DNA from: Actinomycetota bacterium
Lineage (GTDB): Bacteria; Actinomycetota; Acidimicrobiia; Spongiisociales; UBA11373
Direction: 5' to 3'
DNA length: 64,000 nucleotides
NCBI GenBank assembly: GCA_018821365.1
Contig: JAHJML010000174.1
Span: 10,067-74,066, forward strand
Shown: in pieces, positions 3,400 to 42,933 of the stretch
Position numbering within the stretch: position 1 is the stretch's first letter
Layout of the letters: each line of letters begins with the position of its first letter
Made by a program: the position numbers and the translations under genes
The notes under the pieces: model-generated
What the model saw: only the letters and a program-made list of their open reading frames with translations
What the model was told of the DNA's origin: nothing
Databases searched by the model: none

Positions 3400-5440
<2,041 letters not shown>

Positions 5441-5448
<8 letters not shown>

Positions 5449-5842
5449 GCGGGCGCGCAAGATCGCTGCTTGGGTGGTCACCCTCGGTCTGGTGGCAACC
5501 GTGGTCTGGGGCTTCCTGGCCGGCGAACCGACGGAGAGCGACCGGGTGTTCGCCCTCGGCGCCCGCATCAAGTGCCCGGTATGCCAGGGGGAGTCGATCC
5601 AGGAGTCGCCGTCGGAGACCGCCATGGCGATGCTCGACGTGGTGGCCGAGAAGGTCGAGGCCGGGCAGACCGACGAGCAGATCCTCGAGTACTTCACCGA
5701 TCGATACGGGGACGGAATCCGCCTCGATCCGCGCTTCGAGTTCCGAACGATGCTGCTGTGGCTGCTGCCGGCCGCCGCGCTGATCGGGGGCGGGTTGATG
5801 ATCTGGAGCCGGCGCCGCCGGCCGGGAGAGGAACCGTCATGA
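5441..5842 (+). CDS. ccmH: cytochrome c-type biogenesis protein CcmH
   Basis: GTG start overlaps the ccmF TGA (GTGTCTGA). N-terminal TM; the LRCxxC-type motif RIKCPVCQGESI; C-terminal TM. Confidence 0.8.
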
Positions 5843-6657
5843 CCGATAGCGACGACATCCGCCGCCGGGCCCTCGAGGAGCGGGCGCGGCTCGCCCAACA
5901 GGACATCGAAGACCTGCGGCGCCAGGTCGACGAAGGCGAACTGGAGGAGGCCGATGCTGCCGCGCTCGAGGAGCGCTACCGGTCGGACCTCGATGCCGCC
6001 CGCACGAGCCTGGCCGGCATGCCGAAGCCCCGCAAGAGCGCTCCTCCCGCCACGGCGCCCAGCGCCGCCGGCGGAGCCACCGCCGCCGGCAAACCGAACC
6101 GCATCCCTCTGATCGTCGTCATCTCCGCCGCCGCCATGGTGGTGTTGACCATCGCCATCGTGGTGATGGCCACCAGCGGCAACGACGCCGAGACCACGAC
6201 CGACTCCGCGACGCCTCAGGCCGCAACCGGATCGCTGGCGGAGATGGAGGCGGCGGTCGCTTCCCAGCCGGACAACAACACCATGCGGCTGGCCCTGGCG
6301 GGCCTGTACTTCGAATCCGGCGACTACATGAACGCCATGAACCACTACTCGAGCGTGACCGCCAACGACCCGACGCCCCAGGACGCTGCGGTCGCCAACG
6401 CCAGGATCGGTTGGATGGCCTGGGCGGCGCTCGATGACCCGGAGACCGCGCTGTCGTTCCTTGATGCGGCGATCGCGCTCGACCCCACCTACGGCGAGGC
6501 GATCCTGTGGAAGGCCGTCGTGCTCCTCTACGGGATGGACGATGGAGCTGCGGCCGCCCCTCTCTTGGAGCAGGTGCTGGCCTTCCCGGACCTGCCCGAG
6601 GAGCTCAGGCCGGACATCCAGTCCATGCTCGACGAGGCCCGAGGAGGCGGCCAATGA
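5839..6657 (+). CDS. CcmI/CycH-like TPR protein (putative apocytochrome chaperone)
   Basis: ATG overlaps the ccmH stop (ATGA). Acidic coiled-coil N-terminus, one TM (IPLIVVISAAAMVVLTIAIVVMA), then TPR-like helical repeats (LALAGLYFESGDYMNAMNHY...). Placed between ccmH and ccmG. Confidence 0.45.
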   Translation: MTDSDDIRRRALEERARLAQQDIEDLRRQVDEGELEEADAAALEERYRSDLDAARTSLAGMPKPRKSAPPATAPSAAGGATAAGKPNRIPLIVVISAAAMVVLTIAIVVMATSGNDAETTTDSATPQAATGSLAEMEAAVASQPDNNTMRLALAGLYFESGDYMNAMNHYSSVTANDPTPQDAAVANARIGWMAWAALDDPETALSFLDAAIALDPTYGEAILWKAVVLLYGMDDGAAAAPLLEQVLAFPDLPEELRPDIQSMLDEARGGGQ

Positions 6658-7235
6658 CCGATGCTCAGCTCAAGGGCCGCCGGCCGATCTTCTGGATCTC
6701 GGTCGGCGCCGGCCTGGTCGCGTTGATCCTTCTGGCGGTTGCCCTCGCCGATGGGTTCGGGCGGGATCCCCGGGAGCCCGAGAACATCGCCAACCAGGGC
6801 GCCAAGATCGACATGACCAGGGTGCTGCCGTTGCTCGATGGGACGGGCGATGTGGCCTTCTCCGAACTGGAGGGGAAGATCATCGTGATCAACTTCTGGG
6901 CCTCCTACTGCATCCCGTGCCGGGCCGAGCATGAGGTGCTGACCACCGCATCGGAGCAGTATCGGGATCAGAACGTCCAGTTCCTCGGCATCGTCTTCCA
7001 CGACGACCCGGACGCCGCCCGTGACTTCCTCGACACCCTCGGCTGGGGCGACGGGTATCTCTACGCGGAGGATCCCGGGGCGCGGGCCACCGTGGACTTC
7101 GGGGTGTGGGGGGTACCGGAGACCTACTTCGTCGATGCCACCGGCACCATCGTCGACAAGCATTACGGAGCGATCACCCGCGACGACCTCATCCCCGTGC
7201 TCGAATCCATCCTGGCAGGCGACTCGGCCGGCTGA
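6654..7235 (+). CDS. ccmG: thiol:disulfide oxidoreductase CcmG/DsbE (TlpA/ResA family thioredoxin)
   Basis: ATG overlaps the ccmI stop (ATGA). N-terminal TM anchor; thioredoxin fold with active site WASYCIPC. Confidence 0.75.
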   Translation: MTDAQLKGRRPIFWISVGAGLVALILLAVALADGFGRDPREPENIANQGAKIDMTRVLPLLDGTGDVAFSELEGKIIVINFWASYCIPCRAEHEVLTTASEQYRDQNVQFLGIVFHDDPDAARDFLDTLGWGDGYLYAEDPGARATVDFGVWGVPETYFVDATGTIVDKHYGAITRDDLIPVLESILAGDSAG

Positions 7236-7257
7236 GCGGCGGGGATCTTTCTCCCGC

Positions 7258-7276
7258 TAGGGGACTTTTGGCCCTA
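7258..7276. promoter_or_regulatory. imperfect palindrome TAGGGGAC-TTTT-GGCCCTA, 55 nt upstream of the nonahaem cytochrome start (candidate operator, site a)
   Basis: Read directly. Same motif recurs at 9989-10006 and 17426-17443 upstream of two other multihaem cytochrome genes. Confidence 0.4.
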
Positions 7277-7331
7277 CGCGAAGTGCTCCCCCAGCGGCCA
7301 GAATGACCCCGGACGCTGCTGGGGAGACTGT

Positions 7332-8456
7332 GTGAAGGCGCAAAGAACTCACGTTTGGAGAGGATGGCGTCTCGTCGTCCTCGGGTGTGGCGCCGCCGCC
7401 GCGGCGCTGGTGCTGGTCGTGACGACGGGTTCGGCTTCTGCACAGGAGGAACAGGCCCCCCAGTTCGACAGCGAGTACTGCCTCGGTTGCCACGCCAACC
7501 CGGGAATGCAGACGACGCTGCCCTCCGGCGAGGTGCTCGACCTGACCTTCGATGTCGCCGCCCACGAGGCATCCGTCCACGGCCCCTACGACATCCCGTG
7601 TGTCCTGTGCCACACCGACGTCACCGGCTTCCCCCACGAACCGCTCGACGTGGCGGACCTGCGGGTCTGGACCCTCGAGCGAAACCAATCGTGCGCCAAC
7701 TGCCACGAGGACGAGGCGGAGAGCGCCCGGGACAACGTGCACGCCGCCGCGCTCGCCACCGGGGTGCGCGAGGCGGCGGTCTGCACCGACTGCCACGACG
7801 CCCACAATGCCCGCAAGCCGGTGGCGCACACGCCGGAGGTGGCCGAGACCTGCGGTGAGTGCCACGGCGAGATCTACCAGTTGTACGAGGGATCGGTCCA
7901 CGGCGAGGCACTCGCCACCGGTAATCGCGACGTTCCCACCTGCACCGACTGCCACGGGGTGCATGACGTCGGGGGTCCCAGCCAGTCAGAGTTCCACCTG
8001 TTCTCGCCGCAGATCTGCGCCGGGTGCCACCAGGACAAGGAGTTGATGGACCGCTACGGCGTCCGGGCCGACACCTTCGACACCTACATCGCCGATTTCC
8101 ACGGTGAGACGGTGGTGCTGTTCGAGGCGCTGGCGCCGGGTCAGGAGACCAACAAGCCGGTCTGCATCGACTGCCACGGGGTCCACAACATCCAGAGCGC
8201 CGACAATCCCGACAGCCAGACGTTCAAAGACAACATCCTCGGCACCTGCCAGCGCTGTCATCCCGATGCGTCGATCAACTTCCCCTCGGCATGGCTGGGC
8301 CACTACACCCCCTCGGCCGACAACGCCCTGCTGGTGTGGCTGGCCGGTTGGTTCTACAAGATCGTCATCCCGGTGACCATCGGCGGGATGCTCGGCTATG
8401 TCGTGCTGCTGAGCTTCAGGAGCAGGCGCTCCCGCAAGGAGGCCGCCCGTGGCTGA
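7332..8456 (+). CDS. nonahaem c-type cytochrome, signal peptide plus C-terminal TM anchor
   Basis: Nine CxxCH: CLGCH, CVLCH, CANCH, CTDCH, CGECH, CTDCH, CAGCH, CIDCH, CQRCH. N-terminal signal peptide and C-terminal hydrophobic helix. GTG start with GGGGAGA RBS. Confidence 0.85.
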   Translation: MKAQRTHVWRGWRLVVLGCGAAAAALVLVVTTGSASAQEEQAPQFDSEYCLGCHANPGMQTTLPSGEVLDLTFDVAAHEASVHGPYDIPCVLCHTDVTGFPHEPLDVADLRVWTLERNQSCANCHEDEAESARDNVHAAALATGVREAAVCTDCHDAHNARKPVAHTPEVAETCGECHGEIYQLYEGSVHGEALATGNRDVPTCTDCHGVHDVGGPSQSEFHLFSPQICAGCHQDKELMDRYGVRADTFDTYIADFHGETVVLFEALAPGQETNKPVCIDCHGVHNIQSADNPDSQTFKDNILGTCQRCHPDASINFPSAWLGHYTPSADNALLVWLAGWFYKIVIPVTIGGMLGYVVLLSFRSRRSRKEAARG

Positions 8457-9888
8457 TCGCTACCGCAGGTTCAACCTCTCGGATCGCCTCGAGCACGTTG
8501 CCCAGTTGACCGCCTTCACCGCACTGGCGGTCACCGGCTTGGTGCAGCGCTACTCGGAGGCCTGGCTGTCGCGGCGCCTCATCGACCTGCTTGGTGGCAT
8601 CGAGGCCGTCCGGATCATCCACCGAATCTTCGCCACGATCCTGATGGTGGCCGTCGTCTACCACCTGGGTGCGATCGGCTACCGCAAGTTCGTGCAGCGC
8701 CGCCCCAGGGAGATGCTCCCCACCAGCGCCGACATCCGGGCGGCCGCTCATTCGATGCGGTACCTGGCCGGCCGCGAGGCCGCCCCGCCTCTTCAGGGCC
8801 GTTTCACCTGGGAGGAGAAGGTCGAGTACTTCGCCCTCGTCTGGGGGACGTTCGTGATGATCGTGAGCGGTTTCCTGCTGTGGAACCCGATCGCCACCTC
8901 CAGGCTCCTCCCCGGGCAGTTCGTCCCGGCCGCCAAGGTGTTCCACAGCGGAGAAGCCCTGCTGGCCGTGCTGGCGGTGATCGTGTGGCACATGTACCAC
9001 GTCCACATCAGGCGCTTCAACACCTCGATGTTCACCGGATACATGAGCCGCCGGGACATGGCCCACGAGCACGCCCTGGAACTCGAGGCGATCGAAGCGG
9101 GCACCGCCTTCACGCCCCCGACCGACGATGCGTCTCGCCGCCGGGCCAAGATCTATCTGCCCGCCATCACCGGCGTGGCCGCCATCTTGCTGGGCGGCAT
9201 CTACCTGTTCGTCACCTTCGAGAACACCGCCATCGCCACCATCGATCCCCCCGAGCAGGTGGCCATCTATGCGCCGGTCGAGACCACCGGGACCACCGGG
9301 GCCACCGTGGTGACCACCACGACCCTCCCGGGTGCGACGACATCGACCACGACTCCGCTGGGAGCGTGGGAGGACACCATCGAGGCGATCTTCCGCACCC
9401 AGCGCTGCACGGATTGCCACGGCAACACCATGGCGCTGGGCGGCGTCGACCTCGCCACCTACGCTGGGGTGCTGGCCGTGGTCACTCCCGGTGATCCCGA
9501 CCGGAGCCCCCTGATCGTGCTGCAGGAGAAGGGGGCCCACCCGACGGTCCTCGACGACGGGCAACTGGCGCAGGTGCGGGCTTGGATCGCCGCCGGCGCC
9601 CTCGAGGCGCTGGGTGGCACTCCCCCGACGGGGGTGCCCGGCGGTGCGCCCGGTTGGGAAGACCCGATCTCCGGCTTGCTCGCTTCGTGCGGCTCGTGCC
9701 ACGGCGCTGCCAATCCGGCGGCGGGGCTCGACCTGACCAGCTACGAGGCTGCTCTCGCGGTGATCACTCCCGGGGACCCGGACGCCTCACGGCTCTACGT
9801 GGTCCAGGCCGCCGGGGGCCACCCGGGGCAGCTCAGCGAGGCCGACCTGGCCGTCCTCAGGGAGTGGATCGCGGCAGGCGCCCCGTAG
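8449..9888 (+). CDS. dihaem b-type membrane cytochrome (HydC/FdnI / Ni-Fe hydrogenase cytochrome-b family) fused to two c-haem domains of PSCyt1 type
   Basis: GTG start overlaps the upstream stop (GTGGCTGA). Four or five TM helices with His pairs (RIIHRIF, HMYHVH). A Thr-rich linker follows, then CTDCHGNTMALGGVDLATY... and CGSCHGAANPAAGLDLTSY..., i.e. CxxCHG-(x)n-GLDL[TS]SY modules. Confidence 0.8.
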   Translation: MADRYRRFNLSDRLEHVAQLTAFTALAVTGLVQRYSEAWLSRRLIDLLGGIEAVRIIHRIFATILMVAVVYHLGAIGYRKFVQRRPREMLPTSADIRAAAHSMRYLAGREAAPPLQGRFTWEEKVEYFALVWGTFVMIVSGFLLWNPIATSRLLPGQFVPAAKVFHSGEALLAVLAVIVWHMYHVHIRRFNTSMFTGYMSRRDMAHEHALELEAIEAGTAFTPPTDDASRRRAKIYLPAITGVAAILLGGIYLFVTFENTAIATIDPPEQVAIYAPVETTGTTGATVVTTTTLPGATTSTTTPLGAWEDTIEAIFRTQRCTDCHGNTMALGGVDLATYAGVLAVVTPGDPDRSPLIVLQEKGAHPTVLDDGQLAQVRAWIAAGALEALGGTPPTGVPGGAPGWEDPISGLLASCGSCHGAANPAAGLDLTSYEAALAVITPGDPDASRLYVVQAAGGHPGQLSEADLAVLREWIAAGAP

Positions 9889-9988
9889 CAGCCGGCCGGA
9901 TCCTTCGCGGCCGGTTGGAGTGGGCATCCCGGGTGCCGCGGTGGCTTCGATCGCGGCGGTCGCGCTCCCCGTGAGGCGTCCCTGACAA

Positions 9989-10006
9989 TAGGGCCAGAGG
10001 TCCCTA
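9989..10006. promoter_or_regulatory. imperfect palindrome TAGGGCC-AGAG-GTCCCTA, 55 nt upstream of the ImcH-like gene (site c; an extra GTCCCT half-site lies immediately upstream)
   Basis: Read directly. It is the reverse complement of the arrangement at sites a and b. Confidence 0.4.
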
Positions 10007-10061
10007 TGAGCGAGCACCTCCCATCTCCTAGCGTGGGTCCAGCACAGAGGGGAGACGTGAA

Positions 10062-11666
10062 GTGAGCGATCAGACGGACGACGGCATCGTCGAGGAACCC
10101 GCCGGCACCGACGGGATGAACCAGGTCCCGCCGACCGGGGCGCCGCCCGGCAAGGACGCCGACGGCCGTTCCCCCACGAACATCTTCACTTTCCCGATGA
10201 CGGCCATCGGGGGTGGCATGGTGCTCGCCGGTGTGGTCGCCTTCTTCGTTCTGATGCTGATCGACCTGACCAGCCAGACCGAGAACCCGTATCGGGCCAT
10301 CGTCACCTGGCTGGCGATCCCGGCGGTCATCACCCTTGGTCTCGTGATCGCAGTGATTGGGATCGTCGTCCGATCCCGGATGGCCCGGCGCCGCGGGGAG
10401 AGCATCCGATTCCTGCTGCGGATCGAGCCCTCCAACCCTCGCTACATGCGCAACCTGTGGCTGTTCCTCGGGTTGGCGGCCGTCCTGATCGTCCTGGTCG
10501 CCTACGGCGGCATACGTGCCTATGAGACCACCGAATCGGTCGCCTTCTGCGGAGAGGCGTGTCACGAGGTGATGGGGCCCCAGAACACCACCTACCTCGC
10601 ATCCGCCCACGCCAGGGTCCCCTGCACCGAGTGTCACATCGGCCCGGGACGGTCCTTCTGGGTCAAGTCCAAGCTCGACGGCATCCGCCAGGTGTGGAAG
10701 ACGATGACCAACACCTTCGACCGTCCGATCGCAACCCCGGTGACCAGTCTGCGCCCCGCCCAGGAGACCTGCGAGCACTGTCACTGGCCCGAGCAGTTCT
10801 ACGGGCAGCAGTTGGTGAACCTCAGCTACTACCGGAGCGACGAGGCCAACTCGCCGTGGACGATCAGCCTGCTGGTCAACGTGGGCGGCGGGAACCCCCG
10901 CACCGGTACCGCCGAGGGCATCCATTGGCACATGATCACCAACAACACCATCGAGTACATCGCCGTGGATCGCGATCGCCAGGAGATTCCGTGGGTGCGC
11001 CTCAACCGGGAGGACGGGACCCAGGTGGTGTACGCCGATCCGGACGCCGGCATCGGCCCCGACTCCCCCGGGGTCGAGGTCCGCACCTTCGACTGCATCG
11101 ACTGCCACAACCGGCCGAGCCACACGTTCGAGCCGCCGGCGACCGCCATCAACCTCCGCATCGCCCAGGGCAGCATCTCCCGGGACCTGCCGTTCATCCG
11201 CCGGGTGGGCCTCGACCTGCTCAACGCCGAATACCAGACCACCCCGGAGGCCAACGAGGCCATCCCGGCCGGCTTGGTGGCCTTCTACGCGGCGGAGTAC
11301 CCCGACGACGTAGAGGCGTTTCGGGCGGACATCGATCGGGCGGCAGAGGCACTGGTGAAGATCTACGACGGCAACTTCTTCCCCGAGATGAAGACCGACT
11401 ACCGGGTGCGGGTGAACAACCTGAGCCACTTCACCAACGACGGCTGCTTCCGGTGCCACAACACCGACCTCGTCTCCGACCAGGGCATCGGCATCGGCAC
11501 CGCCTGCGACACCTGCCACTCGATCGTGGCGCAGGGGCCCTCGGAGGACGTCAACGAGTTGCAGAGTGACCTGGGTGGCCTGGAGTTCGAGCACCCGGTC
11601 GACATTGGCGGCGTATGGGATCGTATCAAGTGCACCCAGTGCCACACCCCCGCTCAGGGGTACTGA
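10062..11666 (+). CDS. heptahaem NapC/NirT-family c-type cytochrome with two N-terminal TM helices (ImcH-like)
   Basis: Seven CxxCH: CGEACH, CTECH, CEHCH, CIDCH, CFRCH, CDTCH, CTQCH. N-terminal TM helices; the first two haems have NapC/NirT-like spacing. GTG start, RBS AGGGGAGA. Confidence 0.8.
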   Translation: MSDQTDDGIVEEPAGTDGMNQVPPTGAPPGKDADGRSPTNIFTFPMTAIGGGMVLAGVVAFFVLMLIDLTSQTENPYRAIVTWLAIPAVITLGLVIAVIGIVVRSRMARRRGESIRFLLRIEPSNPRYMRNLWLFLGLAAVLIVLVAYGGIRAYETTESVAFCGEACHEVMGPQNTTYLASAHARVPCTECHIGPGRSFWVKSKLDGIRQVWKTMTNTFDRPIATPVTSLRPAQETCEHCHWPEQFYGQQLVNLSYYRSDEANSPWTISLLVNVGGGNPRTGTAEGIHWHMITNNTIEYIAVDRDRQEIPWVRLNREDGTQVVYADPDAGIGPDSPGVEVRTFDCIDCHNRPSHTFEPPATAINLRIAQGSISRDLPFIRRVGLDLLNAEYQTTPEANEAIPAGLVAFYAAEYPDDVEAFRADIDRAAEALVKIYDGNFFPEMKTDYRVRVNNLSHFTNDGCFRCHNTDLVSDQGIGIGTACDTCHSIVAQGPSEDVNELQSDLGGLEFEHPVDIGGVWDRIKCTQCHTPAQGY

Positions 11667-11687
11667 TCGGCACCTAGCCGCCAACTC

Positions 11688-11724
11688 GAGAGGCCCCGGG
11701 TTCCCCCTCTACCCGGGGCCTCTC
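11688..11724. terminator. GC-rich hairpin (14-bp stem GAGAGGCCCCGGGT/ACCCGGGGCCTCTC, 9-nt loop) between convergent genes; candidate bidirectional terminator
   Basis: Perfect inverted repeat read directly. Lies between the stop of the ImcH-like gene (11666) and the stop of the bc-complex operon (11819). Confidence 0.5.
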
Positions 11725-11818
11725 TGCGCGGCATCCCGGGTGCACCGGGCTAACCCGGCAGCGGCTCGTCGACAACGACACCCGCCGGCGCCTGAGCGAG
11801 CCTGTGCGGCCGTGCCGC

Positions 11819-13912
11819 TCAGTTGTCGGGTGCCCCCTGGCGGATCCAGGCGAGGATCGCATCCACCTCGGTGGTCGGGAGGGACCCGGAGGGCGGCATG
11901 AACCCGCCTGTCCCGGTGCCGAGCAGCCATTGGCCGAGGAGGCTGTTCTCCGCATCGCCGGGGATGACCGCGGGTCCGCTGTTGCCGCTCGCCATCACCG
12001 ACTGGTACGACTCGGCCGACCATCCGCCGGACGCTCCGTGGCACGCCAGGCACTTCGACTGGAAGATGGGCAGCACGTCGCCCGAGAAGGACACCTCCGC
12101 AACCGGCCCGGGGGTGCCCGGTCCGCCCTGCAGCGAGCGGATCAACTCGACCAGTCCGGAGATCTGCTCGTCGGTGAGGATGTCCCCCCAGCCGATCATG
12201 GCGGTGGCCGGGTGGCCGAGGTCGATCGTCTCGAACAACTGGCTGTCGGAGTGGATCGCCTGCCACTCCGGAGATTGGAACGAAGGCCCGATCCCGCCCT
12301 CCCCGTCGGCGCCGTGGCATTGGGCACAGAACCCTGCGTAGATGTCGGCGACATCCACCAGCAACGGGGCCCGCTCGACCGCCGGCGGGAGCTCGACCGG
12401 AGGGTTGTCCTGCCAGGACCGGATGTAGGCGACGATCGCCCCCACCTCGTCGGCGTCCAGGGGGCCGCCGAAGGCCAGGCCGAAGGGTGACATCCCCGAG
12501 TCGGGCTGCCCCTGGGTGATGATGGCCCTGATGGTGATGTAGTCGCGGGTCACCAGGTACTGCTCGGTGCTGATCGGGCCGATCGTGAAGGATGGATCGA
12601 CCGGGCTGGCCCCTCCCTCCCCGAACTCGCCGTGGCACACCGTGCAGTGCTGCTCGAACAGGGTCTTTCCGAGCACGGCAGGCGAACCCTGGCTGGCCTC
12701 ATAGGCGTAGTCGGTCAGGGCGTCCAATTGCTCGGCGGTGAGCACGTCGCCCCAGACCGGCATCGTTTGGTGGGAACCACCCTTGACGATGATCTCGGTG
12801 GCGGCTTCCACCGACTCGGCCACCGGAACCCGGGTTCCGTGGCACACGGCGCAGTCGGCCTCGAAGAGGGCAGCACTCGAAGCGGGCGCCGTGTCGGGGG
12901 CCACCACGTAGGCGGCCAGAGCGGCGATGTCGGCATCGGGGAGGACTCCGCCCATCGCCGGCATCGTCAGATGCCCCCCACCCTTCTCGATGATCGCCAG
13001 CAACTCGTTGCGCGTTCCGGCGAACTGGGCGCTGTTGCCGTGACAGGCGGCGCAGTTGAGCACGAACAGACGGTGTCCGTCGGGTGCGATGAGGAAGTTG
13101 ACGAGGGCGGTCGCCGAACTCTCGTCGAGCGAGGGGAGGTCGAGGCCCGCGTGCGGTTCGAACTCCGAGCCGGGCTGGAGGGCCGCCCGGAGGGTGAGCG
13201 GTTGGGTGGCAGCCAGGCCGACCGCCTGGTGGCACCCCGAACAGGAGTCCTGGAACACGGCGCTGCCGTTGGGCGAGAGGACGAAGCCGACCAGGGCGTC
13301 GATCTCGTCTGAGGAAAGGTCGCCGCTCCAGGCCGGCATCCCCTCGTGGCCGCCCTGGGAGATCACGTCGCCGAGATTGACTCCGGCGGGAACGGCGATC
13401 GAGGTGCCGTGGCACCCCGAGCAGTTCTCGGTGTAGAGGAGGGCGACCGGGTCGCCGCCGGCGGCCTCGAGGGGCGGTTCCGCCGCCAGCAGCGCCTGCA
13501 CGGTGAGGCCCAGCACCCCGAGGAAGAGGAACACCACGAACCCGAGGACGATGGGACGCCCCCGGATGTTGCGGGTGCGGGATCGATCCAGCCATGGGAG
13601 TGCCGCCAGGATGAGGAGGATCGCCCCGGGCAGGATGATCACGCCGACAAACTCCAGGTTCCCCGGGAAGAACTTGAGCAACTGGAAGAGCCAGAGGAAG
13701 TACCACTCGGGCCGGGGTGTGAACGAGTCGTCGGACGGGTTGGCCTGGTCGCCCAGTTCGGCACCGATCACGGCGGAGAGCACCACCAACGCCACGAACA
13801 CCAGCAGGGAGACTATGGCGTCCTTGAACAGGGCGTTGGGGAAGAACGGGATGCCCCGCTTCTTGTCCTCCTGGTACTTCTCCAGGTAGTCACGCCTGTC
13901 CTGTTCCCGCAT
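11819..13912 (-). CDS. cytochrome b C-terminal domain (subunit IV / QcrC-like) fused to seven class-I cytochrome c domains
   Basis: N-terminus has three TM helices and the PEWY motif (PEWYFLWLFQLLKFFP) of cytochrome b / subunit IV. Then seven CxxCH (CSGCH x2, CAACH, CAVCH, CTVCH, CAQCH, CLACH), each followed about 40-60 aa later by a Met-Pro axial-ligand-like motif. Confidence 0.85.
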   Translation of the reverse strand: MREQDRRDYLEKYQEDKKRGIPFFPNALFKDAIVSLLVFVALVVLSAVIGAELGDQANPSDDSFTPRPEWYFLWLFQLLKFFPGNLEFVGVIILPGAILLILAALPWLDRSRTRNIRGRPIVLGFVVFLFLGVLGLTVQALLAAEPPLEAAGGDPVALLYTENCSGCHGTSIAVPAGVNLGDVISQGGHEGMPAWSGDLSSDEIDALVGFVLSPNGSAVFQDSCSGCHQAVGLAATQPLTLRAALQPGSEFEPHAGLDLPSLDESSATALVNFLIAPDGHRLFVLNCAACHGNSAQFAGTRNELLAIIEKGGGHLTMPAMGGVLPDADIAALAAYVVAPDTAPASSAALFEADCAVCHGTRVPVAESVEAATEIIVKGGSHQTMPVWGDVLTAEQLDALTDYAYEASQGSPAVLGKTLFEQHCTVCHGEFGEGGASPVDPSFTIGPISTEQYLVTRDYITIRAIITQGQPDSGMSPFGLAFGGPLDADEVGAIVAYIRSWQDNPPVELPPAVERAPLLVDVADIYAGFCAQCHGADGEGGIGPSFQSPEWQAIHSDSQLFETIDLGHPATAMIGWGDILTDEQISGLVELIRSLQGGPGTPGPVAEVSFSGDVLPIFQSKCLACHGASGGWSAESYQSVMASGNSGPAVIPGDAENSLLGQWLLGTGTGGFMPPSGSLPTTEVDAILAWIRQGAPDN

Positions 13913-13916
13913 ACGG

Positions 13917-14576
13917 CTACTCCCCCTTCTTGGGAGGCGCCGAGATGCCGTTGCGCACCACCAGGTAGAGGTGGAGGCCCACCAGGAGCAGCAGGATCGC
14001 CGGCAGCACCCACACGTGGATCCCGTAGAAGCGGGACAGGGTCACCGCGCTCAGGTCGTCCCCGCCCCTCGCCACCCGCAGCGCCCAGTCACCGATGAGC
14101 GGCGTCACCTCCAACATGCGGGTGCCCACCACGGTGGCCCAGTAGGCCTTCTGGTCCCAGGGAAGCAGGTACCCGGTGAACCCGAACGCCAGCGTCAGTA
14201 CCAGCAGCCCCACCCCCGACAGCCAGGTGATCTCCCGCGGGAACTTGTACGCCCCGTGGTAGATCACCCGCACCATGTGGAGCCCGACCAGCAGGACCAT
14301 GGCGCTGGCCCCCCAGTGGTGCATGCCCCGGATCAGCCACCCGGCGGTCAGGTCGTGGGAGATGAAGTCGACGGTGGCGTAGGCATCCTGGACACTGGGC
14401 ACGTAGTAGATGGTGAGGAGGATCCCGGTGATGATCTGATTGACCACCACGATCAAGGTGGCGCTGCCGAGGGTGTAGGCCCAGTTGACCTTGGGCACCT
14501 GGCGGAGGAACACCCCATCCCAGACGAGGCGCCACCCGGTTCGCTCATCCAGCCAGCCGCCGACCCGGTCGCTCAT
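13917..14576 (-). CDS. cytochrome b6 (N-terminal four-helix dihaem-b domain of a split cytochrome b)
   Basis: 219 aa with conserved His pairs in helices B and D (GMHHWGASAMV..HMVRVIYHG ... FYGIHVWVLP) and the TGYLLPWDQ motif. Confidence 0.9.
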   Translation of the reverse strand: MSDRVGGWLDERTGWRLVWDGVFLRQVPKVNWAYTLGSATLIVVVNQIITGILLTIYYVPSVQDAYATVDFISHDLTAGWLIRGMHHWGASAMVLLVGLHMVRVIYHGAYKFPREITWLSGVGLLVLTLAFGFTGYLLPWDQKAYWATVVGTRMLEVTPLIGDWALRVARGGDDLSAVTLSRFYGIHVWVLPAILLLLVGLHLYLVVRNGISAPPKKGE

Positions 14577-14577
14577 C

Positions 14578-15051
14578 TCACGCCTCCAGGCTCACGAAGA
14601 TCTGGCCGTCCTCCACCTTGACGGGGAACTCATCCAGACCCCTCGGCGGCGGGCCGGCGACCACCTGCCCGTCGACACTGAAGACGCCGTTGTGACAGGG
14701 GCAGAAGAACTCGTTCTGGTCGGCGACCCAGCGGACCCGGCACCCGAGGTGCGTGCAGACGTTGGAGAACCCCCTGAACTCGCGACCGTCGTGGGTGACG
14801 ACGTAGACGGCCACCTCCGCCTCGGTGGAGACCCATCCACTGGTCTTGGTGACCTTCGCCTTGAAGAGGGAGGGCGTTCCAATGTCGACTCGATCAGCGG
14901 CGCCGAGTACGATCCACTCCGCCTCGCCCGTCTTCTTCTTGGCCGGGCTCAGCACGTAGGCAACCCCCGGTACCGCCCAGCCGATCCCGATGGCGGCGGC
15001 AATGGCAACGGTGGCTCTACTGAGGAACTTCCGCCGGTCCATTGGTGCCAT
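14578..15051 (-). CDS. Rieske [2Fe-2S] iron-sulfur protein, Tat-exported
   Basis: Twin-arginine signal RRKFLSRATVAIAAA. Rieske boxes CTHLGC and CPCHNG. Confidence 0.9.
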   Translation of the reverse strand: MAPMDRRKFLSRATVAIAAAIGIGWAVPGVAYVLSPAKKKTGEAEWIVLGAADRVDIGTPSLFKAKVTKTSGWVSTEAEVAVYVVTHDGREFRGFSNVCTHLGCRVRWVADQNEFFCPCHNGVFSVDGQVVAGPPPRGLDEFPVKVEDGQIFVSLEA

Positions 15052-15241: not shown

Positions 15242-17362
15242 CTACGGCCGGGTGTAGCCGGTCACATCCCCACCGACGTTCTCGATCGAGTCGATCAGCA
15301 ACTGGATCACGTACTTGCCGTTGTGGGCGAATCCACCCGGATCCTTGACGGCGTACTGGTAGTTGTAGGCCGAGCCAAGCAGCGCCGGTGTCCACATGCC
15401 GAACGCCTCATCACCACTGAAGAAGTACGGATACCGGTTCGGGTCGTAGATCAGGTCCCCGAGGCCGTATGCCTCGGAATAGGCCTGGAGCGCTGCGTAG
15501 AGGTCAGCCCGGAGGGTGTCGATCTCTCCGTACAGTCCTTCGGCCGCGTCCCCGTCACCGTCGAAGTCGCCCTCGCTGATGCGGAACGCCATCGGGTCGT
15601 CGCTGCCGTGGCAGCCTGCGCACGACTCGACCTTGACCTCCAGGGTGTGGGACCCATGGCATTCGGTGCAGGTGTCGAAACCCTCGACATGGGCATTGCG
15701 ACCCGCGTACTCCTTGCCGGCGAACTGGAACCCGCCCTGCACCTCCCCTCCGAACAGGGTCGCCCCTGCTGGGAAGTAGTGCACGTTGCGGAACCGCAAA
15801 CCCTCGACGACGTCGTTGGGTCCGGCATCGCCGATGGCCGCATTGACGCTGACCGTGGACTCGCGTCCCTGGTGGCAGTTCATGCAGAGATTGCCGTCGG
15901 CGCTCCCGCTGTCGACCTCGAGCCCGCTCGGGAACTCGACTGGGCCTGCCTCGTGGCGAGTCCAGGTGGTGAAGTCGTTGTGGCAGGTCGAGCACAGGAA
16001 GCCGTTGCTGGGCTCCTGGCTGACGGTGACGCCCTCAGCGAGGAACAGCGGCAAGCCGGCTGCACTGTGGCACTTGGAGCACGACGCCGGCACCACTGCC
16101 GGGTCGTCCTCGTCCCAGTGGCGGAAGGCCTCCTCAGAGCCGGCGAAGTGCCCATGGTCGATGCGATGGGCCGCATCGACGGCGATCGGGCTGCTCAGCA
16201 CCGAGTTGAGGTCCTCGGTGGAGTCGCTCAGCAACTGGAGGATGTACTTGCCGCCGTGGGCGAACGCCCCCGGATCCTTCAAGGCCACCTGATAGTTGTA
16301 CGCCGCCCTCACGAGGCGCGGAGTCCAGGCCGGGTAGGCATTGCCGAAGTTGGCCTCGCCCTCGGTCACGGCCCCGTCGCCGTCGGTGTCGGCGAAGAAG
16401 TACGGATAGGTCAGACCGTCGTAGACAAGCCCGGTGCCCACGGTCTCGGAGGCATACGCCTGCATCGCCAGATACAGCGTGGCGGTCGCGCCCTCGATCT
16501 CGTAGTAGATGCCTTCGGCCAGGTCGCCGTCGCCGTCGTAATCGACCAGAGAGCCCATCATGCGGACGTTCTTCAGGTCGTCCGCCGAGGTCACTCCGAC
16601 GTGACACGTGGCGCATTCCTCGATCTTGAGTTCGAGGCTGTGCGGATTGTGGCAATCCACACAGGTCTCGTAACCCTCGATGTGGGTGAAGAAGGCGTCA
16701 TAGGTCCCGCCTTCGTACTGGTAGCCGCCCATCGCCTCGTTGCCGTACTTGGTGGCTGCGGCGGCAAAGTAGTGGATGTTGATGAACCCGAGATCTTCGC
16801 TGACTTCGTCGTCACCAACGCCGGCGGCGGTGATCGCCTCGTCCACCGTCACCTTGGATGCCCTGCCCTGGTGGCAGGTCATGCAACGAGCCTCTGCACC
16901 CAGGCCGGTCAGCTCGACACCGGATGGCATCGTCACGCTGTCCAGGGCCAGGGTGGCCGCGTTGTGACAGGTCGTACAGGTGATGGTCGTGTCGGGATCG
17001 TGGGCAGCGTCGACGACTCCGGCAGCGCTCCCGTCGGCGCCGACGAAGTCCTGGAAGCCGGTACCGACGTGGCACTTGGCACAGGACTCGGGCACGACCG
17101 CCGGGTCGTCCCCGTCCCAGTGTCGGAAGGCTTCGGCGTCGGCGGCATTGTGGGCAGACGCCTCCCATGCTGCGAGGAACGGGATCTCGACCGCAGGCTC
17201 CACCACCACGGGGACCGTGGTGGTGGTCGCCGGCGCCTCGGTGGTGGTCACCGGGGCGGCGGTCGTAGTCGTTCCTGCGTCGTCGCCGCTACAGGCGGCG
17301 ATGACCAGGGAGAGGGCTGCGAGCAGTGCGCCGATCGTCGACAGCCTGGATCGATGGGTCAT
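15242..17362 (-). CDS. decahaem c-type cytochrome lipoprotein with internal pentahaem duplication
   Basis: Lipobox LSLVIAACSG followed by a Thr-rich linker. Ten CxxCH: CAKCH, CTTCH, CMTCH, CVDCH, CATCH, CSKCH, CSTCH, CMNCH, CTECH, CAGCH. The two halves are clearly homologous (AFRHWDGDDPAVVPESCAKCH vs AFRHWDEDDPAVVPASCSKCH). Confidence 0.85.
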   Translation of the reverse strand: MTHRSRLSTIGALLAALSLVIAACSGDDAGTTTTAAPVTTTEAPATTTTVPVVVEPAVEIPFLAAWEASAHNAADAEAFRHWDGDDPAVVPESCAKCHVGTGFQDFVGADGSAAGVVDAAHDPDTTITCTTCHNAATLALDSVTMPSGVELTGLGAEARCMTCHQGRASKVTVDEAITAAGVGDDEVSEDLGFINIHYFAAAATKYGNEAMGGYQYEGGTYDAFFTHIEGYETCVDCHNPHSLELKIEECATCHVGVTSADDLKNVRMMGSLVDYDGDGDLAEGIYYEIEGATATLYLAMQAYASETVGTGLVYDGLTYPYFFADTDGDGAVTEGEANFGNAYPAWTPRLVRAAYNYQVALKDPGAFAHGGKYILQLLSDSTEDLNSVLSSPIAVDAAHRIDHGHFAGSEEAFRHWDEDDPAVVPASCSKCHSAAGLPLFLAEGVTVSQEPSNGFLCSTCHNDFTTWTRHEAGPVEFPSGLEVDSGSADGNLCMNCHQGRESTVSVNAAIGDAGPNDVVEGLRFRNVHYFPAGATLFGGEVQGGFQFAGKEYAGRNAHVEGFDTCTECHGSHTLEVKVESCAGCHGSDDPMAFRISEGDFDGDGDAAEGLYGEIDTLRADLYAALQAYSEAYGLGDLIYDPNRYPYFFSGDEAFGMWTPALLGSAYNYQYAVKDPGGFAHNGKYVIQLLIDSIENVGGDVTGYTRP

Positions 17363-37116: not shown

Positions 37117-37884
37117 CTACACCCAGTACCGGACCAGCGCCGCCATCTGGTCGGGGTCCAGCGAGGCGCCCCCCACCAGTCCCCCGTCGATGTCGCGCTT
37201 GGCCATCAGGCCGGCGACGTTGCCGGGGTTGACCGAACCCCCGTAGAGGACCCGGGTGCGATCGGCGGCGTCCCCCCACTGTGACCTCACCTGCTCGCGG
37301 AGGTATCCGCAGGCGGCGGCGGCGGTATCGGCGTCGGCGGTGCGTCCGGTGCCGATGGCCCAGATCGGCTCGTAGGCGACCACCAGACCCCCGACGGTGG
37401 CCTCGTCGAGGCCGCCGAGCGCAGCCTGCAACTGGCCCCCGATCACCTGCTCGGTGACCTCCTGCTCACGCTGCTCGAGCGTCTCGCCGACGCAGACGAT
37501 CGGGGTCATCCCCTCGCCGAGCACGGCGCGCAACTTGGCGGCCACGACGGCATCGTCCTCGCCGAACAACTGGCGCCGCTCGCTGTGGCCAACGATGACG
37601 TAGCTCACCCCGAGCTTGGCGAGCATCCCCGGAGACACCTCTCCGGTGTAGGCGCCGCCGCTCTCCCAATGGACGTTCTGGGCTCCCAGTTTGATGCGGA
37701 GGTAGTCGGCCTCGATGACCGTCTGCACCGACCGGAGCGAGGTGAACGGAGGGCACACCAGCACGTCGACCCGGTCGTAGTCGGAGGGGTCGAGCCGGTA
37801 CCCGAGTTTCTGCACCATCTGGATCGCCTCCAGATGCGTGGCGTTCATCTTCCAGTTGCCTGCGATCAGATCCTTACGAGCCAT
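37117..37884 (-). CDS. tpiA: triosephosphate isomerase
   Basis: MARKDLIAGNWKMN... and the VAYEPIWAIGTG active-site region. Start ATG 37882-37884; overlaps the pgk end by 11 nt. Confidence 0.9.
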   Translation of the reverse strand: MARKDLIAGNWKMNATHLEAIQMVQKLGYRLDPSDYDRVDVLVCPPFTSLRSVQTVIEADYLRIKLGAQNVHWESGGAYTGEVSPGMLAKLGVSYVIVGHSERRQLFGEDDAVVAAKLRAVLGEGMTPIVCVGETLEQREQEVTEQVIGGQLQAALGGLDEATVGGLVVAYEPIWAIGTGRTADADTAAAACGYLREQVRSQWGDAADRTRVLYGGSVNPGNVAGLMAKRDIDGGLVGGASLDPDQMAALVRYWV

Positions 37885-39061
37885 CGGCCCACCTCTCCAG
37901 TGCTTCCAGTCCGGGGAGCGTCCCGCCCTCCAGCATTTCCAGTCCCGCTCCCCCGCCGGTCGACAGATGCGACACCGCCGACTCGAGCCCGAAGGCCCGC
38001 AGCGCCGCCACGCTGTCTCCACCACCTGCGGCGGTGAACCCCGGGCAGGCGCCCACCGCCTGGGCCACCCTTCGGGTCCCTTCTGCAAACGGCTCCCACT
38101 CGAACACTCCCATCGGGCCGTTCCAGAACACGGTGTCCGATCCGCCGATCACGGCCGCAAACCGCTCGGCGGTAGCCGGGCCGATGTCGAGGCCCATGGT
38201 CCCGTCGGGGATCGATGTCGCCGCCACCACCCGATGCGGGGTGTCTGCCGCAAACGAATCGCCGATGACGATGTCGCTCGGCAGCACCAGTCGCCCGCCG
38301 TCGGGACCCTCCATCACGTCCCGGATCTCATCGAGCATGCCCTCCTCCACGAGGGAGTCGCCCACTGGGTAGCCATCGGCCATCAGCAGCGTGAAGCACA
38401 TGGCTCCACCGATCAGCATGGCGTCCACCTTGGGGAGCAGCGCCCGGATCACTCCGAGTTTGTCGGAGACCTTGGCGCCTCCCAGGATCACCACGTACGG
38501 ATGATCGGGTTCGTCGAGCAGCCTGCGGAACGCCAGCGCCTCCGCCGCCAGCAGCCGCCCGGCCGCCGATGGGAGCCGTTCGGCGACCCCGACCGTGGAG
38601 GCGTGAGCGCGGTGGGCGGTGCCGAAGGCATCCAGCACGAAGAGGTCCGCCAGGCCGGCCAGCCGATCGGCCAGCGCCGGGTCGTTGGCCTTCTCGCCGG
38701 CCTCGAAGCGGGTGTTCTCGATCACCACCACCTCACCGGGCGCAGCTGCCGCCACGGCGGCGCTCGAAAGCGGCCCGGCCACATCCTCGGCGAAGGAGAC
38801 GGGAAAGCCCCCCAGCTCACCCAGCAGGGCGGCCACCGGGGCCAGCGAGAGGCCGGCGGTGGGGCCCGAAGGCCGGCCCAGGTGGCTGCAGACGACCACC
38901 CGCGCCCCGCCGTCGATCAGCTCCCTGATGGTGGGGAGGCTGGCCCTGATCCGGAAGTCGTCGCCCACCCGGCCGTCGGTAAGGGGGACATTGAGATCGG
39001 CCCGCACCAGCACGGTCTTGCCGGCGACGTCGAGGTCGTCGAGGGTCAGGAAACGGCTCAC
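37874..39061 (-). CDS. pgk: phosphoglycerate kinase
   Basis: 395 aa; conserved N-terminal LVRADLNVPL, ...GGAK..., ...STGGGA.... Confidence 0.9.
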   Translation of the reverse strand: MSRFLTLDDLDVAGKTVLVRADLNVPLTDGRVGDDFRIRASLPTIRELIDGGARVVVCSHLGRPSGPTAGLSLAPVAALLGELGGFPVSFAEDVAGPLSSAAVAAAAPGEVVVIENTRFEAGEKANDPALADRLAGLADLFVLDAFGTAHRAHASTVGVAERLPSAAGRLLAAEALAFRRLLDEPDHPYVVILGGAKVSDKLGVIRALLPKVDAMLIGGAMCFTLLMADGYPVGDSLVEEGMLDEIRDVMEGPDGGRLVLPSDIVIGDSFAADTPHRVVAATSIPDGTMGLDIGPATAERFAAVIGGSDTVFWNGPMGVFEWEPFAEGTRRVAQAVGACPGFTAAGGGDSVAALRAFGLESAVSHLSTGGGAGLEMLEGGTLPGLEALERWADGS

Positions 39062-39086
39062 AGGTCCTCCGCGGAATCGGCCTCCG

Positions 39087-40046
39087 TCACGCTAGCCGCC
39101 GCAGCACCGCTCCCAGCCGGGCCGGATCGTGCTGCGGCCACGCCGCCCCCGGATCGGCCAGTTCGGCGCTCTCGACCCGGCACCCGAGCGCCGTCTCGTC
39201 GACCTCCACCCGCTGCAACCCGGCCGGCACCTCCAGGGGGCCGTGGTGCCCGACCACGACGTCGGGGCGTCGCAGCCCGGTCCGCTCGACGAGCGCCGCC
39301 ACATGCGCGGCGGCGTCCATGCCGAGGGTCTCACCGTCCTGGGTGATCAGGTTGCACACGTACACCAGGCCCGCCGCCGAAGCGTTGACCGCCTCGACCA
39401 CTCCCGGGACGACCAGCACCGCCGCCAGCGAGGTGTAGAGGCTGCCGGGACCGATGACGATTTGCTCGGCGGAACCGATGGCGGCCAACGCCGCCCGGGT
39501 GGCCGTCACCGCCGGGGTCACCCGCAGATCCTCGATGCTTCCCCGCGACCGCGAGATGGCCGCCTGACCCGACACCGCCTTCCCGTCGATGACTGCTTCG
39601 AGGACGAGCGGCTCCGACGCCACCGGCACCACCGCCCCCCGGGCGCCCATCAGCCTCCCCATGGTGTTGAGCGCCTCTTCCAGGCCCCCCGACATCTCGG
39701 CGAAGGCAGCGAGCACCAGGTTGCCGAGGGAGTGCCCGGCTACGTCGCCGTGTTCGAAGCGGTGCTCCATCACCCGGCGCCACAGGGACCCTCCCGGGCT
39801 CAGGGCCAGCAGGGCGCGGCGGGTGTCGCCCGGCGGCGGGATCCCCAGCCCCGGCACCAGTCTGCCCGAAGATCCACCGTCGTCGGCGACGCTGACGACG
39901 GCGGTGATGGTCTCGCCATACTCCTGGATCGCCATCAACGCCTGCGCCAGTCCGTGCCCACCGCCGAGGGCAACCACCCGGAGGCCGCCGATGTCCAACT
40001 CCAACTCCTCCAGGAGGGGGTCGACGATGGTCTCGAACTCGCTCAA
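39087..40046 (-). CDS. YvcK/CofD-family gluconeogenesis factor (UPF0052)
   Basis: RVVALGGGHG and VSVADDGGSSGRL motifs. Proposed TTG start overlaps the rapZ stop (TTGA); the track ORF extends to 40151. Confidence 0.7.
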   Translation of the reverse strand: MSEFETIVDPLLEELELDIGGLRVVALGGGHGLAQALMAIQEYGETITAVVSVADDGGSSGRLVPGLGIPPPGDTRRALLALSPGGSLWRRVMEHRFEHGDVAGHSLGNLVLAAFAEMSGGLEEALNTMGRLMGARGAVVPVASEPLVLEAVIDGKAVSGQAAISRSRGSIEDLRVTPAVTATRAALAAIGSAEQIVIGPGSLYTSLAAVLVVPGVVEAVNASAAGLVYVCNLITQDGETLGMDAAAHVAALVERTGLRRPDVVVGHHGPLEVPAGLQRVEVDETALGCRVESAELADPGAAWPQHDPARLGAVLRRLA

Positions 40047-40888: not shown

Positions 40889-41047
40889 GCCCGTCCTCCA
40901 GGAGATGTTCCTTCACCACTCTTCGTCCTCCCCAGGATGGTAGGGCCGCTTCCTGCTCGCCCCCACGATGGCAGGCGCCGTCCCGGGAAGGGAGCCTCTC
41001 TGAGATCGACGGAGGTGCCGCCGGCCCCCGGGTCGGCGGCCGGCCCA

Positions 41048-42901: not shown

Positions 42902-42933
42902 GGGCGCCGAGTGTATCGGGGGACCCCGGCGGC

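Follow-up and report, generated by a model that had tools for sequence, protein, structure and literature searches.

The 64-kb stretch of Actinomycetota DNA analyzed here (the window; 64,000 nucleotides of contig JAHJML010000174.1, assembly GCA_018821365.1) carries a cluster of genes for multihaem cytochromes. All 35 haem c sites of the window fall in five genes at 7.3-17.4 kb, and our main subject is one of these five, an imcH-like gene on the forward strand (10062..11666). It is preceded by two genes which look like a split CbcL-type quinol oxidoreductase and faces a convergent Rieske/cytochrome b operon, beyond which lies the gene for a 10-haem lipoprotein. In Geobacter, ImcH relays the electrons of respiration from quinols to cytochromes beyond the cell membrane. 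Only three families of inner-membrane quinol oxidases for extracellular electron transfer are known, of which ImcH is one, and it serves as a genomic marker for this process (PMC6295460; PMC4251993).

The imcH-like gene has a GTG start and encodes 534 amino acids (aa). The open reading frame (ORF) proposed by the initial annotation, which was made from the DNA letters without database searches, was recovered at exactly the same coordinates. Its third-position GC content of 0.91 is typical of real genes in sequence with 68 % GC, a GGGGAG ribosome-binding site is found ~9 nucleotides (nt) 5' of the start, and the same 534-aa call was made in two NCBI assemblies. An identical protein is already present in NCBI, from metagenome-assembled genomes (MAGs) of "Actinobacteria/Actinomycetota bacterium", under the label "BatA domain-containing protein". 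A 75 %-identical relative is labelled "GAP family protein" (P0001 and P0009 are the proteins concerned), and further relatives are labelled "nitrate/TMAO reductase-like tetraheme cytochrome c subunit" (TMAO, trimethylamine N-oxide), while none carries the name ImcH. These public labels are misleading, and the first two would hide ImcH from annotation-based surveys.

The protein carries seven c-type haem-binding motifs, whereas composition-matched shuffles had on average 0.0085 CxxCH motifs, and never more than two (20,000 shuffles). The number seven had been given correctly by the initial annotation, but not all motifs are CxxCH. The first one, C163-G-E-A-C167-H168, is a CX3CH motif located directly after the third transmembrane (TM) helix, TMH3. 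It is part of the proposed quinol-proximal haem-1 site C163GEAC167H168-E-V-M171 (CX3CHxxM; 10548..10574, forward strand, as are all parts of this gene), in which C163, C167, H168, and M171 are invariant in 97 of 97 homologues. The other six are CxxCH motifs, at aa 188, 237, 345, 462, 482, and 524 (10623..11645), as indicated by motif scan and alignment. Conserved distal histidines are found at aa 183, 288, 290, 354, 456, and 511.

Three TM helices, and not two as annotated initially, form the predicted membrane anchor (TMH1-TMH3, 10194..10532). Hydropathy segments at aa 41-73, 77-108, and 128-154 coincide with helices at aa 45-70, 76-110, and 126-157 in the AlphaFold2 (AF2) model, with a predicted local distance difference test score (pLDDT) of 80-94. 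The model was built from a 97-sequence alignment spanning both clades of the family and reached a pLDDT of 82.4; it replaced an earlier one from 25 sequences, which was discarded (pLDDT 54.6, and less than 50 for the haem domain). The loop between TMH2 and TMH3 (aa 109-127) holds six lysine or arginine residues, which places it in the cytoplasm and gives the protein an N-in/C-out orientation, so that the haem domain lies on the outer side of the membrane. Such a location agrees with the requirement of c-type haem attachment. Both corrections, the CX3CH motif and the third TM helix, make the protein a better match to ImcH, not a worse one.

Geobacter ImcH has been described by a CXXXCH as the first of its seven haem motifs, by three putative TM helices, and by a region resembling NapC/NirT (Levar et al. 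2014, PMC4251993 Fig. 1). Its homologues are described as 495-519 aa long, with three TM motifs, an atypical CX3CH beside the TM domain, and six CX2CH (Zhong & Shi 2018, PMC6295460). For the Geobacter sulfurreducens protein (GSU3259), axial histidines have been predicted at positions 137, 152, 161, 210, 256, 258, 316, 321, 423, 433, 453, 474, and 491, together with Gln179 as the proposed distal ligand of haem 1 and a pocket of Glu127, Lys173, and Tyr188 (Pimenta et al., preprint 10.1101/2023.05.03.539133). All 13 axial histidines map one-to-one onto the window protein, with offsets of +31 to +37, at positions 168, 183, 192, 241, 288, 290, 349, 354, 456, 466, 486, 511, and 528. The gaps between consecutive ligands are 15, 9, 49, 47, 2, 59, 5, 102, 10, 20, 25, and 17 residues in the window protein, compared with 15, 9, 49, 46, 2, 58, 5, 102, 10, 20, 21, and 17 in G. 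sulfurreducens. The haem motifs of GSU3259 (at 132, 156, 205, 311, 428, 448, and 486) reappear in the window protein at offsets of +31 to +38. Of the other listed residues, Q179 corresponds to Q210, K173 to K204, and E127 to E158, while Y188 is replaced by F219. K204, which also corresponds to K82 of NrfH, and Q210 are encoded at 10671..10691, and were assigned by offset mapping and conservation.

Conservation was scored on the same 97-sequence alignment. C163, C167, H168, M171, H183, H192, K204, H241, H288, H349, and H354 are present in all 97 sequences, Q210 is kept in 96, and position 158 is aspartate or glutamate in 95. The column of position 219 is more variable, with tyrosine in 63 sequences, phenylalanine in 29, and histidine in five. 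Because tyrosine is not universal, it is not a strict requirement of the ImcH family.

For a direct comparison, the first ~275 aa of GSU3259 (NP_954300.1) were reconstructed from a machine-read published alignment. The window protein is 38 % identical to this reconstructed part (aa 1-275; E=6e-60), TM helices included. A database fragment, P0140, represents the authentic N-terminus of the GSU protein, as it begins with MTLRKT like the published N-terminal sequencing result; it aligns with the window protein and confirms H137 in the context FCGELCH. Three proteins of the Geobacter clade, 62-81 % identical to GSU3259, were used as stand-ins: P0138 (34.7 % identity to the window protein over 481 aa, E 1.6e-117), P0139 (39.8 % over 387 aa, E 5e-114), and P0130 (36.8 % over 446 aa, E 9e-114). 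All haem motifs and distal histidines share alignment columns between the window protein and these Geobacter-clade proteins.

Profile searches point in the same direction. The Pfam NapC/NirT profile (PF03264) reaches 32.5 bits (cutoff 24.1), and its match is limited to aa 134-221 (10461..10724), a NrfH-like region with TMH3 and haem sites 1 and 2. A c3-like Pfam match spans haems 5-7. In contrast, the NCBIfam models for NrfH (TIGR03153, 55.6 vs 134.2), NapC/NirT (TIGR02161, 14 vs 310.6), and TorC (13.6-13.9 vs 455-478) stay below their cutoffs. NrfH is the only significant relative of the window protein in the PDB (E=5e-4 with the single sequence, 5e-9 with the family profile). To our knowledge, no structure of ImcH has been solved. 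No NrfA, NapA, NarG, TorA, or DmsA was found in the 64-kb window. Because the hallmarks and ligands match, the NapC/NirT Pfam profile passes, the NrfH/NapC equivalogs fail, and a cognate reductase is lacking from the 64 kb, the assignment of the gene as a genuine member of the ImcH family is supported at the sequence level.

These results bear out most of the initial annotation, which had proposed an ImcH-like identity from the NapC/NirT-like spacing of the first two haem sites and had seen no nitrite or nitrate reductase nearby. The spacing is real, as indicated by the PF03264 score, and the identity holds by published hallmarks, by axial ligands, and by 35-40 % identity to the Geobacter clade (E = 1e-114 to 1e-117). 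Three of the checks it had suggested, namely the NapC/NirT profile search, the pairwise alignment with GSU3259 (here with its reconstructed N-terminal part), and the inspection of distal haem ligands, gave positive results, and neither of the two grounds it had named for a refutation was borne out. A CbcA/CbcBA-like identity of the target gene, considered in view of the neighbouring cytochrome b, was rejected, since the target itself agrees with ImcH at the level of single residues, and the partner of the cytochrome b is the upstream 9-haem gene, as in CbcL.

The ImcH family is very large. It comprises more than 7,700 sequence clusters at 90 % identity, with matches in at least 599 species-representative genomes from many phyla. 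A distance tree of 37 representatives splits into two deep clades. One contains Geobacter, together with Acidobacteria, Verrucomicrobia, Bacteroidota, and others. The window protein belongs to the other, in which it falls into an Acidimicrobiia sub-clade (with loci L001, L002, L003, and L016), next to Zixibacteria, some Ignavibacteriales and Calditrichota, and one Pseudomonadales MAG. The CX3CH(x)xM site is present in all 37 representatives, and all have at least six CxxCH, except the C-terminally truncated P0130 (five). Geobacter ImcH, the sole characterized member, thus represents one of the two deep clades. Ignavibacteriota and Calditrichota occur in both (L005/L007/L010/L012 vs L022, and L015 vs L072), which suggests either ancient paralogy or horizontal transfer.

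The initial annotation overstated how notable an actinobacterial homologue would be. Besides the size of the family, several MAGs from the Acidimicrobiia contain close homologues, and an actinobacterial homologue, from Intrasporangium calvum, had been included in a 2018 survey, although an atypical one with 569 aa, 10 motifs, and one TM helix (PMC6295460). The window protein is therefore a useful extension, and not a surprise. It is not the first actinobacterial match either, yet it is a canonical ImcH in a Gram-positive lineage. Within the literature that could be searched, ImcH together with Acidimicrobiia returned no paper. The host genome is actinobacterial, and probably from the Acidimicrobiia.

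Directly upstream of imcH, two genes on the same strand look like the c-half and the b-half of a split CbcL-type quinol oxidoreductase (7332-9888), as judged from their predicted products. The first one (7332..8456) encodes a 374-aa, 9-haem c-type cytochrome with an N-terminal signal or anchor and a C-terminal TM helix, recognized by its CxxCH motifs (at aa 50, 90, 121, 151, 174, 204, 229, 278, and 306; TM at 332-363) and by Pfam Paired_CXXCH/c7. The second one (8449..9888) encodes a FdnI/HydC-type dihaem cytochrome b with ~5 TM helices, followed by two C-terminal PSCyt1 monohaem c domains (PF01292, two PF07635, and NCBIfam formate dehydrogenase gamma). Its start overlaps the stop of the 9-haem gene by 8 nt in another frame, and a gap of 174 nt separates it from imcH. 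The CxxCH of the PSCyt1 ("Planctomycete cytochrome c") domains lie at aa 320 and 414. Such a fusion is unusual, and these domains are missing from most cytochrome b homologues at other loci (no CxxCH in the split cytochrome b ORFs). For comparison, CbcL of Geobacter (GSU0274) has nine CxxCH at 34, 57, 82, 105, 129, 158, 186, 229, and 257, a TM helix 28 aa past the last motif, and then five more TM helices.

The linkage of imcH to a CbcL-type unit is not limited to the window. We compared the 80 loci most similar to the window protein (L001-L080), drawn from the at least 599 genomes with matches, none of them Geobacter. In 46 of these 80, belonging to many phyla and to both ImcH clades, imcH has a CbcL-type unit at a distance of up to 8 kb. 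This unit is a single fused ORF of ~650-790 aa with 9-13 haems (the CbcL architecture) in 35 of the 46, and a split pair in the remaining 11, including the closest Acidimicrobiia loci. Among the 64 loci with sufficient flanking sequence, 26 have the cytochrome b gene immediately before imcH and in the same orientation. In Geobacter, the imcH cluster is the only inner-membrane quinol oxidoreductase cluster without a b-type cytochrome, and cbcL is unlinked to imcH. No description of a cbcL-imcH or Rieske-imcH linkage was found in the literature searched.

In the window, imcH is the last gene of a forward-strand unit with the split cbcL-like pair, and this unit ends at a strong hairpin. The hairpin (11688..11724) is perfect, GC-rich, and 14 bp long, starts 22 nt past the imcH stop, and lies between imcH and the convergent subunit IV gene. 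It has the arms GAGAGGCCCCGGGU and ACCCGGGGCCUCUC and a 9-nt loop, without a T-tract. The predicted RNA fold of 11660-11825 has a free energy of -95.6 kcal/mol (z = -5.9), and none of 200 shuffles was as stable. Likely, this hairpin acts as a bidirectional terminator. A scan of 7000-12100 for sigma-70 promoters and T-tract terminators found nothing, a result which is uninformative for high-GC actinobacteria.

The convergent operon on the reverse strand (11819..15051) encodes a Rieske protein (14578-15051), a cytochrome b6-type protein (13917-14576), and a 697-aa protein in which subunit IV is joined to seven monohaem c domains and a PSCyt1 domain (11819-13912), all assigned by Pfam and NCBIfam. 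For the b6 and subunit IV proteins, Geobacter ExtP and ExtQ are the best NCBIfam matches, with scores below cutoff. Of the 80 loci, 27 have Rieske and cytochrome b6 homologues beside imcH (e.g., L017, L022, and L043-L045 at ~9500-10600). Next on the reverse strand is the gene for the 10-haem lipoprotein cytochrome of 706 aa (15242..17362), which has a lipobox (...VIAAC) followed by a Thr/Pro-rich linker, and was recognized by its motifs and by c7/c3/MtrC-like Pfam matches. Within the 80 loci, it is syntenic with imcH only in those from Acidimicrobiia (L001, L011, and L016; 58-65 % identity). A sequence search of the PDB found no relative. By its sequence features, the lipoprotein is a candidate for a downstream electron acceptor, or for a wall-spanning or surface cytochrome.

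Upstream of the cytochrome genes, the forward strand encodes a CcmF/NrfE-type haem lyase (3400-5448), a TPR protein (5470-6657), and a DsbE/ResA-type thioredoxin (about 6654-7235), all recognized by Pfam and NCBIfam as cytochrome c maturation genes of System I. Actinobacteria usually use System II for cytochrome c maturation. System I maturation genes also adjoin imcH at the Acidimicrobiia loci L002 (3803-7623) and L003 (13815-17491). The remaining genes of the window are of the housekeeping type, with an M16 peptidase, an Opp-type ABC transporter, TIM, PGK, a CofD-like protein, RapZ, UvrABC, and PolA. On the reverse strand at 37117-42952, the gene order is uvrC - rapZ - cofD/yvcK-like - pgk - tpiA, and no whiA or gap was seen between yvcK and pgk. 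The order uvrC-rapZ-yvcK(-whiA)-gap-pgk-tpi is typical of Gram-positive and actinobacterial genomes, and that of the window agrees with the taxonomic label of the MAG.

Taken together, we consider it probable (roughly 0.8) that the window gene encodes an ImcH-family inner-membrane cytochrome which works as a menaquinol:cytochrome c oxidoreductase and feeds the co-encoded extracytoplasmic multihaem cytochromes. The predicted topology, the seven haem sites, and the complete and conserved set of axial ligands are evident from the protein sequence, while the role is inferred by homology, with the Geobacter protein providing the sole biochemistry of the family. Purified G. sulfurreducens ImcH contains seven haems, can be reduced by menadiol, is redox-active from -350 to -150 mV, and reduces PpcA, with protons being released to the periplasm (10.1101/2023.05.03.539133). 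Menaquinol oxidation by ImcH, and the need for ImcH in the respiration of acceptors above about -0.1 V, are known for G. sulfurreducens only (PMC4251993; 10.1101/2023.05.03.539133).

Judging from the sequence, the three TM helices hold the seven covalently bound c-haems at the outer face of the cytoplasmic membrane. Menaquinol would bind at the membrane surface beside haem 1, the CX3CH haem, as suggested by NrfH and by the purified Geobacter protein, in a pocket where Q210 may be the distal ligand, with K204 and E158 nearby and M171 after the motif. Two protons would be released outside, so that the quinol step would be electroneutral and would not generate a proton motive force in itself. The two electrons would then travel through six bis-His haems in a row, with an NrfH-like arrangement of haems 1-4 and a c3/STC-like one of haems 5-7. 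From the gene context, they could be handed to the 9-haem CbcL-type subunit, to the haem-c-rich Rieske/cytochrome b complex, and/or to the 10-haem lipoprotein. In this way, a monoderm actinobacterium could pass electrons from its quinol pool to acceptors on the far side of the membrane, with Fe(III), Mn(IV), or humics being plausible as in Geobacter. Such an extracellular role is transferred from Geobacter and from the gene context.

Several observations weigh against this proposal. The characterized Geobacter protein belongs to the other deep clade and is ~38 % identical to the window protein. Tyr188, for which a function in proton handling has been proposed in Geobacter, corresponds to Phe219, in a column which is Y, F, or H throughout the family. 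Geobacter imcH is monocistronic and its product hands electrons to the soluble trihaem PpcA, whereas no PpcA-like gene was found in the 64-kb window, which makes the electron acceptor of the window protein a guess. Furthermore, ImcH homologues occur in very many organisms for which extracellular respiration is not known, and the adjoining Rieske/cytochrome b complex with its class-I monohaem c domains would suit aerobic or microaerobic chains equally well.

This linkage to a Rieske/cytochrome b complex with class-I c domains, together with the breadth of the family, makes one alternative a serious one, namely that a true ImcH-family cytochrome serves as a general link between the menaquinone pool and extracytoplasmic cytochromes c, and not in metal or electrode reduction. 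The pool could then supply oxidases or N-oxide reductases whose genes lie elsewhere, or ImcH could work in the opposite direction and reduce quinone during lithotrophic oxidation, for example of Fe(II). Such a function would fit a huge multi-phylum family found mostly in organisms without a known extracellular-respiration phenotype, the Rieske/cytochrome b6 complex linked to imcH in about a third of the loci (the 27 above), and the seven cbb3-type/class-I monohaem domains on subunit IV, which are typical of chains to high-potential soluble acceptors. It would also fit the window itself, in which no porin-cytochrome or dedicated terminal metal reductase was recognized besides the 10-haem lipoprotein. 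Yet, the only experiments on a family member deal with Geobacter and its extracellular electron transfer (PMC4251993; 10.1101/2023.05.03.539133), and haem potentials between -350 and -150 mV are suitable for oxidizing quinol (10.1101/2023.05.03.539133). In the 2018 survey, among organisms of known phenotype, ImcH was present only in Fe(III) reducers (PMC6295460), and the lipoprotein with its long Thr/Pro linker resembles a wall-spanning electron carrier. On balance, we see a general role of this kind as a possibility to be kept in mind, though a doubtful one.

Rather unlikely, in our view, is that the window protein works as an obligate partner or subunit of the adjoining CbcL-type b/c cytochrome in one quinol-oxidizing supercomplex, with the two modules perhaps serving different potentials or forming a redox loop. 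A cbcL-like gene or split pair is found within 8 kb of imcH at more than half of the loci compared (46/80) and often directly upstream (26/64), and in the window all three genes are encoded on one strand, with an 8-nt overlap between the first two and the sole strong hairpin after imcH. However, cbcL and imcH are unlinked in Geobacter, each is essential at a different potential, and purified ImcH is active by itself. Moreover, 174 nt separate the cytochrome b gene from imcH, many loci have no neighbouring cbcL-like gene, including those of Zixibacteria and Ignavibacteriales from the non-Geobacter clade (clade B), and adjacency can mean co-regulation only. Finally, a NrfH/NapC/CymA-type quinol dehydrogenase dedicated to a periplasmic reductase (of nitrite, nitrate, TMAO, or dimethyl sulfoxide) is effectively excluded, because in spite of the Pfam NapC/NirT match, of NrfH as the best NCBIfam and PDB match, and of relatives auto-named as nitrate/TMAO reductase-like subunits, the equivalog scores stay below cutoff, the protein has seven haems and three TM helices instead of four or five haems and one TM helix, its first motif is CX3CH and not CXXCH, no such reductase lies within the 64 kb, and the full-length match is ImcH.

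If the window protein is an ImcH-type menaquinol:cytochrome c oxidoreductase, as we prefer to read it, its surroundings allow a broader, tentative proposal, to which we give a low probability. Outside Geobacter, imcH might ancestrally belong to a conserved quinol-oxidation island, composed of a cbcL-type unit, imcH, and in some cases a Rieske/cytochrome b complex, whose products would be co-regulated or associated. Together with the lineage-specific 10-haem lipoprotein, such an island could constitute an undescribed Gram-positive, ImcH-based pathway of extracellular electron transfer in Acidimicrobiia. In any case, the cbcL-like/imcH/Rieske-cytochrome b neighbourhood is conserved and unlike the Geobacter paradigm, and it merits a systematic look. 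With a canonical ImcH that has its full set of ligands, found in Acidimicrobiia-type Actinomycetota, the genomic marker reaches a Gram-positive lineage, and the split CbcL-type pair, the haem-rich Rieske/cytochrome b complex, and the 10-haem lipoprotein are candidate parts for metal or electrode respiration there. The adjacency of cbcL-like genes and imcH across phyla, in contrast to Geobacter, where they are unlinked and act at different potentials, suggests that a cooperation of the two modules is worth re-examining.

Among the known systems, Geobacter ImcH (GSU3259) is the closest counterpart. The two proteins are of similar length (507 vs 534 aa) and share the CX3CH(x)xM site by TMH3, but, beyond their separation by clade and by identity, the window protein has a longer acidic N-terminal tail (~40 aa) and a 4-residue insertion before the last distal histidine. 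The gene settings differ as well, with a split cbcL-like pair before the window gene and a Rieske/cytochrome b operon facing it, as opposed to a monocistronic gene, and its host is presumably a monoderm actinobacterium, without a PpcA-like partner in view. NrfH of Desulfovibrio vulgaris (PDB 2J7A/2VR0) and the NapC/NirT/CymA proteins share with the window protein a TM helix followed by the quinol-site haem, with a methionine after the motif, and NrfH also shares the conserved lysine (K82, equivalent to K204) and the packing of haems 1-4. These relatives differ by having four (or five) haems, one TM helix, a CXXCHXM instead of a CX3CHxxM site, and a dedicated reductase adjoining; compared with NrfH, the window protein has three more haems at its C-terminus and two more TM helices.

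The upstream pair resembles CbcL (GSU0274), MtrH, and MtoC in the spacing of its nine CxxCH motifs, in the TM helix ~28-30 aa past the last motif, and in the 5-TM HydC/FdnI-type dihaem cytochrome b which follows, for a total of ~6 TM helices. The likeness to GSU0274 is one of motif and TM spacing, and the pair differs in being encoded by two overlapping genes, not as one fused polypeptide, and in the two additional PSCyt1 monohaem domains at the C-terminus of its cytochrome b. A further parallel is offered by the multihaem chains of Gram-positive bacteria such as Thermincola potens, in which a membrane quinol-oxidizing cytochrome feeds wall-associated multihaem cytochromes in a monoderm cell. 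In such a scheme, the 10-haem lipoprotein with its Thr/Pro linker would fit the wall-spanning role, while the inner-membrane component would here be of the ImcH type.

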